From assembly GCA_051647685.1 (NCBI GenBank), contig JBOFEG010000028.1, forward strand, positions 1,449-65,448: a stretch of 64,000 nt of DNA. Reading direction: 5' to 3'. The stretch comes from Chlamydiales bacterium (GTDB taxonomy: Bacteria > Chlamydiota > Chlamydiia > Chlamydiales > CALTSX01). Positions 7,874 through 8,734 of this stretch are shown in pieces (position 1 is the first letter of the stretch; every line of letters starts with the position of its first letter). Under the pieces are notes generated by a model. It had not been told where the DNA came from and made no database searches. It worked only from the letters and a program-made list of their open reading frames with translations. The translations under genes and the position numbers were made by a program.

Positions 7874-8263
7874 CTACGGACAAAAAGGAAGAGCTGTGAA
7901 GAACATAGAAACTGCAGCCGCAGTACCTTCTATAGCACTCACGGTGCCTGCAATACCGAGAGTTCCACCGATAGCGGCTGTTGTTTCTGCAACTGCGACG
8001 GCAGATCCAGCAGCAACATGTCCAACTGCTCGAGTCACTGCTGCAGCTGCAGCACCTACTCCGGCAGCAGTGGTCATTACACTACCTATTGCTGCGCCAG
8101 CCATACCGCCAGTTGCTCCAACAGCGCCGGCAATACCACCATAAATAACAGCTTTAGTTCCCCAATAAGCTATGGCACCACAAATTGGACCACCGCCTTT
8201 TCCACTGATCCCAAGTCTAAGTTTATAATCTTCCCCAACTGCCTCAAGATAAATTTTCCCCAC
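7874..8263 (-). CDS. Gly/Ala-rich glycine-zipper protein (candidate membrane-active toxin or bacteriocin-like)
   Basis: 129 aa from GTG 8263. About 95 residues form a near-continuous small-xxx-small run: GGIAGAVGATGGMAGAAIGSVMTTAAGVGAAAAAVTRAVGHVAAGSAVAVAETTAAIGGTLGIAGTVSAIEGTAAAV. The start codon is uncertain; see the upstream in-frame segment. Confidence 0.55.
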   Translation of the reverse strand: MGKIYLEAVGEDYKLRLGISGKGGGPICGAIAYWGTKAVIYGGIAGAVGATGGMAGAAIGSVMTTAAGVGAAAAAVTRAVGHVAAGSAVAVAETTAAIGGTLGIAGTVSAIEGTAAAVSMFFTALPFCP

Positions 8264-8362
8264 TTCTAAAACCCTTTCAAGGGAATGATTGGAAGGAGTA
8301 AGTTCAAGCCCTCGAGAAAGGTCATATGGCTGTACATATCTTTTTTCGCCAGATGGAAGTTA

Positions 8363-8482
8363 TATAAAAAAGCATTTATTTCCGTACCCGACAGATAATT
8401 CTCTAAGAGGATGGGAAGTAACTATATGCTGTTTCGAGATAAAAAATTCTCCTGGCTTACAAGGAACTGTTATAGGTAACAC
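8363..8482 (-). other. 40-codon segment in the same frame as the Gly/Ala-rich ORF, cut off from it by TAA 8360-8362
   Basis: GTG 8480-8482 lies 5 nt after AAGGAG (8488-8493). The product reads (M)LPITVPCKPGEFFISKQHIVTSHPLRELSVGYGNKCFFI*. Then 32 open codons lead into GTG 8263. Confidence 0.5.
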
Positions 8483-8734
8483 ATAAACTCCTTTTTTGAT
8501 TTTTCGGCAAGAATTTATTTAATAAGAGATTATTTAGCAAGATTATTTATGAAATTTTTTTTGAAGCTATTTCGATACAATATTAAGCTTTGTGTTTTGT
8601 AGGAAATGTAAAATTGTCAGAATAACTCCAACGCCTGAAACCTATACACTCACTTATCTTAGCTAGATATTTTTAAATAAGTGTAGATATAGTGAAATGC
8701 ATAGCTTAGTTTGGTTAGTCTTTTTAAGATTATT

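Follow-up and report, generated by a model that had tools for sequence, protein, structure and literature searches.

The subject of this analysis is an interrupted gene for a Gly/Ala-rich protein, together with the small gene that follows it, on the minus strand of a 64-kb stretch of DNA from a Chlamydiales bacterium (contig JBOFEG010000028.1; the whole stretch is called the window), which was compared with loci and contigs numbered L001 to L027. The ancestral gene comprises 202 codons from a GTG start to a TAG stop (7874..8482), as established by end-to-end orthologs, tblastn and synteny, and it is interrupted at codon 41 by an in-frame TAA (8360..8362) at which orthologs carry CAA, GAA or GAG in codon, DNA and protein alignments. 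A tblastn search with the restored protein gave a match spanning 8482-7877. The Shine-Dalgarno (SD) sequence AAGGAG (8488..8493), read directly from the DNA, is separated by a 5-nt spacer (TTTAT) from the GTG at 8482-8480, and this start region, AAAAAAGGAGTTTATGTG, is identical in L001, L003, L013 and L009. From this strong start site 40 sense codons, MLPITVPCKPGEFFISKQHIVTSHPLRELSVGYGNKCFFI, lead to the TAA, and the N-terminal fragment they encode (8363..8482) amounts on translation to less than half of an N-terminal domain (N-domain) of ~85 residues. Another 32 open codons run in the same frame from the TAA to a second GTG (8263-8261), and the frame closes at 7876-7874, giving 202 codons if the TAA is read through. 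The annotated open reading frame (ORF) of 129 amino acids (aa) in the ORF list (7874..8263) corresponds to ancestral codons 74-202 and encodes the last beta-hairpin of the N-domain, a GGGP…YWGTK motif and a Gly/Ala-rich hydrophobic domain. Its product is identical to NCBI entry MGL4348563.1, a hypothetical protein of a 'Chlamydiales bacterium' metagenome-assembled genome (MAG). A 73-aa partner gene (7640..7861) starts 12 nt past the stop of the large gene and encodes two predicted transmembrane (TM) helices, with hydrophobic segments at residues 1-32 and 45-61.

The original prediction had described the in-frame TAA split, the SD, the GTG and its spacer, the codon counts and a readthrough length of about 202 aa, and every coordinate proved correct. 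It had also called the SD at the annotated GTG 8263 weak, which agrees with our reading: only an AAGG(G) SD-like element was found there, 8 nt upstream, and this element is coding sequence in the orthologs too. Upstream extension of the 202-codon frame is precluded by a stop 13 codons ahead of the GTG and the lack of any start codon in the interval, and an out-of-frame ATG at 8484-8482 encodes only MCYL before a stop codon. Promoter and terminator scans returned nothing above shuffled expectation. On sequence alone the open frame is suggestive, and marginally so, as one stop or fewer in 73 shuffled codons occurs with P = 0.049; the decisive evidence is homology, because the orthologs span all 202 positions.

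Orthologs were sought with the conceptual 202-aa product carrying X at the stop. The search returned 10 orthologs, all exactly 202 aa long and uninterrupted, with 67-92% identity at 100% query coverage. Column 41 of the alignment holds Gln in four of these and Glu in the other six, so the check that the original prediction had proposed, whether homologs are uninterrupted at the TAA, was answered by all ten. The nearest relative (L001), with 95% nucleotide identity over 1 kb, has CAA at the position of the TAA in the window, and across seven loci codon 41 reads CAA four times, GAA and GAG once each, and TAA in the window. Since the orthologs carry CAA, GAA or GAG, and L001 carries CAA, the stop in the window is a derived single C-to-T transition. 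The position of the gene is conserved in five further contigs, after mlaE-mlaF-mlaD-algH as in the window, and flanking genes have the same lengths in the window and its syntenic relatives.

Nei-Gojobori estimates of the ratio of nonsynonymous to synonymous substitution rates (dN/dS) among the intact orthologs were 0.18-0.45 over codons 1-95 and 0.08-0.19 over the remaining codons, 96-202; dS reached ~1.5. This purifying selection identifies the 73 codons upstream of the annotated start as real coding sequence kept by selection. Homologs do not start at the position equivalent to 8263, as would be expected of a gene that had always begun at the annotated GTG. The region before the stop thus passes as coding by the constraint on codons 1-95, the conserved SD and start, and the folded N-domain. 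Between the window and L001 dN/dS was 0.38 (33 differences), which is not clearly relaxed, and the window copy has two private changes at otherwise invariant positions (N19H and G57R) compared with 0-7 in the intact orthologs. Neither the private substitutions nor the dN/dS against L001 revealed any decay of the window copy beyond the stop. From the few private changes and this dN/dS we conclude that the stop is the sole lesion of the window copy and that it is recent.

The TAA is most probably a recent single-base nonsense change in a conserved 202-codon gene, and less likely an assembly error. The C-to-T transition turned codon 41 from CAA (Gln) into TAA, so that the strong start now yields a 40-residue fragment of the N-domain. 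The 129-aa ORF is merely the first start-to-stop ORF remaining downstream of the TAA, and anything translated from GTG 8263 would have to rely on weak internal initiation and would be missing most of the N-domain. We infer that the gene has recently become a pseudogene; at best, weak internal initiation would still produce a remnant truncated at the N-terminus. It resembles ordinary nonsense pseudogenes in its derived in-frame stop, its shorter annotated ORF and its decayed neighbours, and no difference from them was found. On this account the deposited 129-aa 'hypothetical protein' represents the 3' part of a disrupted 202-aa gene, for which pseudogene would be the proper annotation. The original prediction had offered a recent nonsense mutation, two separate products and stop-codon readthrough as explanations; the uninterrupted orthologs with Gln or Glu at the TAA column and the purifying selection upstream speak for the first.

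A second, independent disruption of the same gene was found in L009 and L010. The ortholog at the same locus is called there as a 153-aa protein, with identical sequence in two samples. Compared with intact relatives, it has lost 1 bp at each of two sites, at or next to poly-A runs (AAAACAAAA to A8; A8 to A7; 5850-6010 in L009 and at the same coordinates in L010), so that the frame changes twice between codons ~18 and 47. Both contigs have an intact 2-TM partner gene. The gene is thus broken in its N-terminal third in 2 of ~12 known orthologs. Codons 1-73, which make up 36% of the gene, hold 37 of its 69 one-step routes to a stop, are AT-rich (37% GC compared with 51%) and carry the poly-A runs of the L009 deletions.

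The strongest competitor to a real nonsense mutation is that the TAA arose through faulty sequencing or assembly, or is a minority allele that entered the MAG consensus, and that the organism encodes an intact 202-aa protein. The TAA allele is present in a single assembly, and an exact-pattern scan of independent JGI metagenome contigs found neither the TAA nor the CAA version of the stretch. The window copy is also otherwise indistinguishable from functional orthologs, and its dN/dS against L001 is not clearly relaxed. However, the neighbouring genes match the lengths of their orthologs, which shows that errors are not widespread in the contig; a second decayed gene lies in the same island, a frameshifted copy of the 2-TM gene (described below); and the ortholog of an independent lineage is demonstrably broken in two samples. 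The frameshifted copy and the broken L009/L010 ortholog together make gene loss at this locus plausible biology, and we consider an error or minority allele improbable, at well under one chance in four.

Somewhat less probable again is that the locus is still useful, with a 129-aa protein made from the internal GTG 8263 that keeps the hydrophobic domain, possibly alongside a 40-aa peptide. In its favour, both disrupted lineages retain an intact C-terminal ORF, the AAGG element stands 8 nt before GTG 8263, and none of the three lesions lies beyond codon 50. A conserved split is seen in no ortholog, however, and the two broken lineages differ in both the place and the kind of the break. The two separate products of the original prediction, as a designed arrangement, are rejected on the same grounds, as the only other split ortholog is broken differently. 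The AAGG is ordinary coding sequence (E-K/R-V) in intact orthologs as well. Because the 129-aa ORF starts at residue 74, its product would be missing ~70 residues of the ~85-residue N-domain, on which purifying selection acts. The clustering of lesions toward the N-terminus is weak evidence for selection on the C-terminal part because codons 1-73 are so rich in stop routes and poly-A runs; in so few lesions it is not unexpected.

Programmed readthrough or recoding of the TAA, which would yield the 202-aa protein, has a frame open on both sides and a product of exactly ortholog length to recommend it, but is very improbable since the codon is an ordinary sense codon in orthologs, so that the stop is derived and no split is conserved, TAA is the standard stop codon and the one used most often, ending 29 of 43 long ORFs of the window, and the 64-kb window contains no tRNA gene, suppressor or other, no Rfam family at gathering threshold and no conserved recoding signal. 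The use of TAA as the main terminator also rules out codon reassignment. Frameshifting at the T6 and A6 runs near the stop was ruled out because the upstream and downstream parts share one frame.

An AlphaFold2 model of the 202-aa protein, built on a 96-sequence alignment, gave a confidently predicted N-domain (residues ~11-95; predicted local distance difference test, pLDDT, 90-96) of short beta-strands, a helix at 65-74 and a beta-hairpin at 75-92, with the TAA codon falling in the beta-strand at 37-41. Helices were predicted at 98-123, 128-139, 161-172 and 176-196. In the 96 family members G98 and K110 are invariant, and F38, G75, L88, G96, G97, P99, Y106, T109, Y114, A163, E185 and P199 are conserved in at least 90%. 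The family signature can be written GGGPxxGxxxYWxTKxxCYG … E … P(F)xP, with its last part at the C-terminus. Residues 96-202 are 49% Gly plus Ala. A Sec-type, signal-peptide-like hydrophobic N-terminus is present in ~70% of the family members retrieved.

Membership of the glycine-zipper, Rick_17kDa_Anti or bacteriocin families, which had been suggested from composition, found no support. Neither the 129-aa nor the 202-aa sequence matched any family of Pfam-A at E ≤ 1 by hmmscan; the Pfam families Gly-zipper_Omp, Gly-zipper_OmpA, Gly-zipper_YMGG, Rick_17kDa_Anti and Bacteriocin_IIc share the Gly/Ala-rich hydrophobic composition, but their hidden Markov models (HMMs) did not match. The HMM searches proposed for both products returned no NCBIfam family either, and searches of NCBIfam, PHROGs and PADLOC (nothing at E ≤ 0.1 in the last) gave no match for the large protein, for its partner or for small ORFs nearby. 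PDB sequences searched by profile gave only noise (best E = 1.4), and three staphylococcal superantigen-like PDB matches at E 2.5-5.8 were rejected as not significant. The structure prediction that had been proposed succeeded in part: it gave the confident N-domain, but a C-terminal part of low confidence and no known fold relative, as Foldseek searches of two AlphaFold models against PDB and BFVD reached E = 0.16 at best.

The gene is accompanied by a small gene in every locus examined, mostly after a gap of 7-17 nt. Orthologs of the 73-aa partner are present in every syntenic locus, with 57-92% identity within the chlamydial clade. In phage and other bacterial loci the small partner is 60-93 aa long (141 aa in L021), and between distant loci the partner sequences have diverged beyond alignment. 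Computation gave two hydrophobic segments for the partners in the window, L002, L005, L006, L007, L017 and L025, while the others were recognised by size and position. The adjacency of the pair is kept across unrelated contexts, namely Chlamydiales loci, other bacterial contigs and phage contigs.

Extra partner copies occur in several of these loci. In the window a degenerate, frameshifted second copy of the 2-TM gene (6928..7140, minus strand) was recognised as a DNA repeat and by tblastn: positions 6918-7105 and 7633-7828 are 71-72% identical with an 8-nt offset, and 7059-6928 has 64% identity to partner residues 30-73, with the N-terminal half in another frame. Together with the TAA-broken gene this makes at least two decayed genes in the island. 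In L002 a second, intact partner copy lies 2.8 kb away with 78% nucleotide identity, and this distant copy is nearer to the partner of the window (79%) than is the adjacent copy of L002 (62%). In L006 three 2-TM paralogs (8080-9168; 84, 67 and 72 aa; 24-43% identity) stand behind a single 283-aa family member. The L021 phage contig has tandem large-gene paralogs (9134-9814 and 9893-10573) followed by a 141-aa membrane protein.

The family is large. A profile search of 1.84 billion representative proteins returned 1,274 clusters, defined at 50% identity, at E ≤ 1e-3, of which 947 were found at E ≤ 1e-10 and 268 at E ≤ 1e-30, with most members 190-300 aa long. Many members are encoded on contigs of 33-38 kb, and 14 IMG/VR viral contigs encode members. 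L005 and L014-L027 (34-38 kb, from IMG/VR and Logan) represent one uncultured lineage of ~35-kb phages that share a portal (phrog_156, E = 2.5e-74), a major head protein (phrog_1357), a scaffold and a terminase, and whose capsid has at most 29% identity to that of any GenBank phage. In these phages the pair lies between the portal/terminase and scaffold/capsid genes, among signal-peptide proteins, and the orientation of the cassette relative to the structural genes varies, as it does with morons. Near the pair in L025 (6850-7692) is a signal-peptide Peptidase_A4 protein (an eqolisin-type glutamic peptidase; E = 5e-25), which is unusual for a phage.

Named bacterial carriers of the family are the Chlamydiales MAG, Candidatus Babeliales MAGs (HLC07148.1 and HJZ22837.1) and an 'uncultured Pseudomonadota' MAG. 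The bacterial contigs L006 and L007 have no phage genes within the range fetched. Family members used as tblastn queries matched nothing in GenBank phages or PLSDB plasmids, and megablast of the locus against plasmids gave no match. One locus was found in GTDB representative genomes with a narrow back-translated pattern, by which the distribution is under-sampled. Literature searches on glycine-zipper phage proteins and on phages of Chlamydiae and Dependentiae turned up no description of the family. These sequence comparisons place the gene in a large and undescribed module of two membrane-protein genes with links to phages and intracellular symbionts. The split itself is ordinary; of wider interest are the more than 1,000 clusters that have no Pfam, NCBIfam, PHROG, PADLOC or PDB relative.

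As to what the module does, we tentatively favour a toxin/immunity-like pair, at somewhat less than an even chance within this question. Gene 1 combines an N-domain that is variable and beta-rich with a conserved hydrophobic domain, which is Gly/Ala-rich, has three or four predicted helices and contains one Lys that is invariant and one Glu that is nearly so. The hydrophobic domain would insert into a bacterial membrane and perturb it, the small 2-TM partner would neutralise it in the producer, and the pair would have arrived on a mobile element, probably a phage, with gene 1 inactivated here. This function is favoured because of the two-part design of a variable N-domain and a conserved hydrophobic domain, because most members carry export signals, and because the small membrane partner is obligatory, tightly linked and highly divergent. 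It is favoured further by the partner arrays and orphan copies, and by the setting of the pair in mobile DNA or variable islands beside toxin-antitoxin and defence genes, where the large gene has repeatedly been lost and the partner kept. Such pairs usually decay by losing gene 1 and keeping gene 2. Two features generally looked for in toxin/immunity pairs were found here, namely large/small adjacency conserved across contexts and extra partner copies in L006, L002 and the window. The toxin idea of the original prediction, with the downstream 2-TM gene as partner, is plausible and is strengthened by the conserved pairing and the partner arrays.

Taken as a whole, a gene 1 broken by a nonsense mutation within a putative membrane toxin/immunity-like pair is the best explanation of the locus, and we place its probability at about 0.7. 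Several observations weigh against it. The confinement of the TAA allele to one assembly, and its absence from the JGI contigs scanned, were given above. The Gly/Ala-rich residues 123-175 were modelled at pLDDT < 50, so that the C-terminal domain to which membrane activity would be ascribed is of low confidence. The small-xxx-small repeats said to fill the 129-aa ORF occur no more often than composition predicts (14 observed compared with 13.9 ± 3.2 in shuffles), and a single strict GxxxGxxxG is present (residues 125-133); 'glycine zipper' therefore describes a compositional property, and a periodic motif is not demonstrated. The chlamydial clade of the window is without a signal peptide, and its topology or targeting may differ. 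No toxin, bacteriocin, holin or defence model was matched. Finally, the chlamydial clade has long retained the gene vertically, with purifying selection acting on it (dS as high as ~1.5), and this would also fit a housekeeping envelope role.

The principal functional rival, to which we give somewhat under one chance in three, is a phage membrane function kept by bacteria, either lysis timing of a holin/antiholin-like kind or superinfection exclusion or injection blocking with a helper. The placement of the pair in one phage lineage, between portal/terminase and scaffold/capsid genes and in moron-like variable orientation, fits such a role, as does a partner with the size and topology of a class II holin, and in the chlamydial island the pair adjoins defence-type genes (RloB/AAA_21). 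Holin/antiholin and superinfection-exclusion proteins are, in general, likewise phage-borne, small and arranged in compact cassettes, and the partner with its two TM helices is class II holin-like. The large protein is unlike known holins in carrying a signal peptide, a domain of periplasmic type and a tail of several helices. In L005, L016, L021 and L025 no Pfam or PHROG holin or endolysin was found for the pair or its neighbours and no endolysin or spanin family lies beside it, and neither a PHROG holin nor a PADLOC model was matched. Divergent partner arrays behind one large gene are moreover typical of immunity genes and atypical of holin/antiholin systems. Should a phage membrane function be correct, the module would offer a way into the study of phages that may infect intracellular bacteria of this kind.

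Distinctly less probable is that the leaderless chlamydial protein is a type III-secreted, Inc-like protein of the host membrane, or an ordinary envelope protein. The clade does lack the Sec signal peptide found in most relatives, it has retained the gene vertically at one locus with dN/dS (omega) ~0.2, and the hydrophobic domain is long. Inc proteins have a bilobed hydrophobic segment of roughly 40-60 residues. The hydrophobic domain here, however, covers ~100 residues and runs to the extreme C-terminus, which is atypical of Inc proteins, the same domain occurs with a Sec leader in phages and Babeliales, and the tight pairing with a 2-TM gene would be left unexplained.

Returning to the favoured toxin/immunity-like pair, we compared it with its two closest described analogues. 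Contact-dependent growth inhibition (CDI) ionophore toxins consist of an entry domain and a helical membrane domain and are paired with polymorphic small CdiI proteins (PMC11630599). The two systems are alike, as far as the prediction for the present protein goes, in having a variable N-domain before a helical, membrane-spanning C-terminal domain, with a gene for a small polymorphic membrane protein immediately downstream and extra or orphan copies of it (PMC11630599). In CDI, however, the toxin is the tip of CdiA and is accompanied by CdiB, whereas the protein here stands alone at ~200 aa, with no CdiA, CdiB or large upstream ORF. Unlike CDI toxins, most family members have a Sec signal peptide, and the hydrophobic domain is Gly/Ala-rich with a low-confidence model; this comparison was made by description only. 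Set against the five-helix bundle of CDI toxins, four helices are predicted here, with pLDDT below 50 for residues 123-175 and no Foldseek match.

The Cdz toxins CdzC and CdzD are 84-86 aa long (the 5-10 kDa class), with type I secretion leaders, adjacent cdzAB genes and a small transmembrane CdzI (PMC5380434). These bacteriocins share with the present family Gly-rich hydrophobic GxxxG segments, a small transmembrane gene in the cluster and frequent horizontal acquisition (PMC5380434). The protein here differs in its 202 aa, its extra folded N-domain, the lack of an adjacent type I secretion system (T1SS) and a zipper periodicity not above composition. No T1SS genes were found near the window gene, whose neighbours are the mla operon, algH and hypotheticals. 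Membership of the CDI or Cdz families fails, given no CdiA/CdiB, no T1SS and the wrong size.

A bolder version of the toxin/immunity reading, which we hold to be unlikely in full, would make the pair a new and widespread class, in which an exported toxin inserts into membranes and small, polymorphic proteins confer immunity; neither the N-domain fold nor the GGGP…YWGTK…E…PF(L/C)P domain has known relatives. The class would be a phage moron domesticated by Chlamydiales and Babeliales, which are obligate intracellular bacteria of protists and animals, and would serve competition or superinfection exclusion between co-infecting strains, with repeated loss. If the pair is indeed a toxin and its immunity protein, it would imply antagonism between bacteria, or between phages and bacteria, in lineages usually thought isolated inside host cells, and would add a new membrane-active domain to the toxin repertoire.

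The two-gene module is bracketed by a direct repeat. One copy (8735..8789, minus strand) is the 3' end of algH (DUF179) including the stop codon, in a ~55-nt alignment, and the other (7579..7632, minus strand) is a duplicate of this 3' end just downstream of the 73-aa gene, in an arrangement like that of phage attachment (att) sites. A perfect 20-nt core, AATACGCCTCTCTTTCTATG, occurs twice in the 64 kb compared with 0.01 expected. L002 likewise has a 73-nt repeat of 85% identity (7231-7303 and 9940-10012) around a 2.7-kb island. The repeats resemble the att duplication that a site-specific element leaves when it inserts at the 3' end of algH; an integrase is absent.

The contents of the island vary between loci, with HigB/Gp49 in L001, a Zeta toxin and a helix-turn-helix protein in L002, RloB and AAA_21 in L011, and DUF2992 in the window. 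The frameshifted 2-TM copy overlaps the mechanically called ORFs 7016-7159 and 7116-7295. The paralogs of L006 are interspersed with a signal-peptide protein and share their 106-kb bacterial contig with genes for Ku and an ATP-dependent DNA ligase. The DUF2992 protein of the window (6453-6902, plus strand) has a Lys-rich tail and is absent at the same position in relatives. At the far boundary of the variable island the window encodes a 696-aa protein with no Pfam domain (4327-6417, plus strand), whose counterparts are 690-692 aa long in all syntenic chlamydial contigs (L002, L003, L009, L012 and L013).

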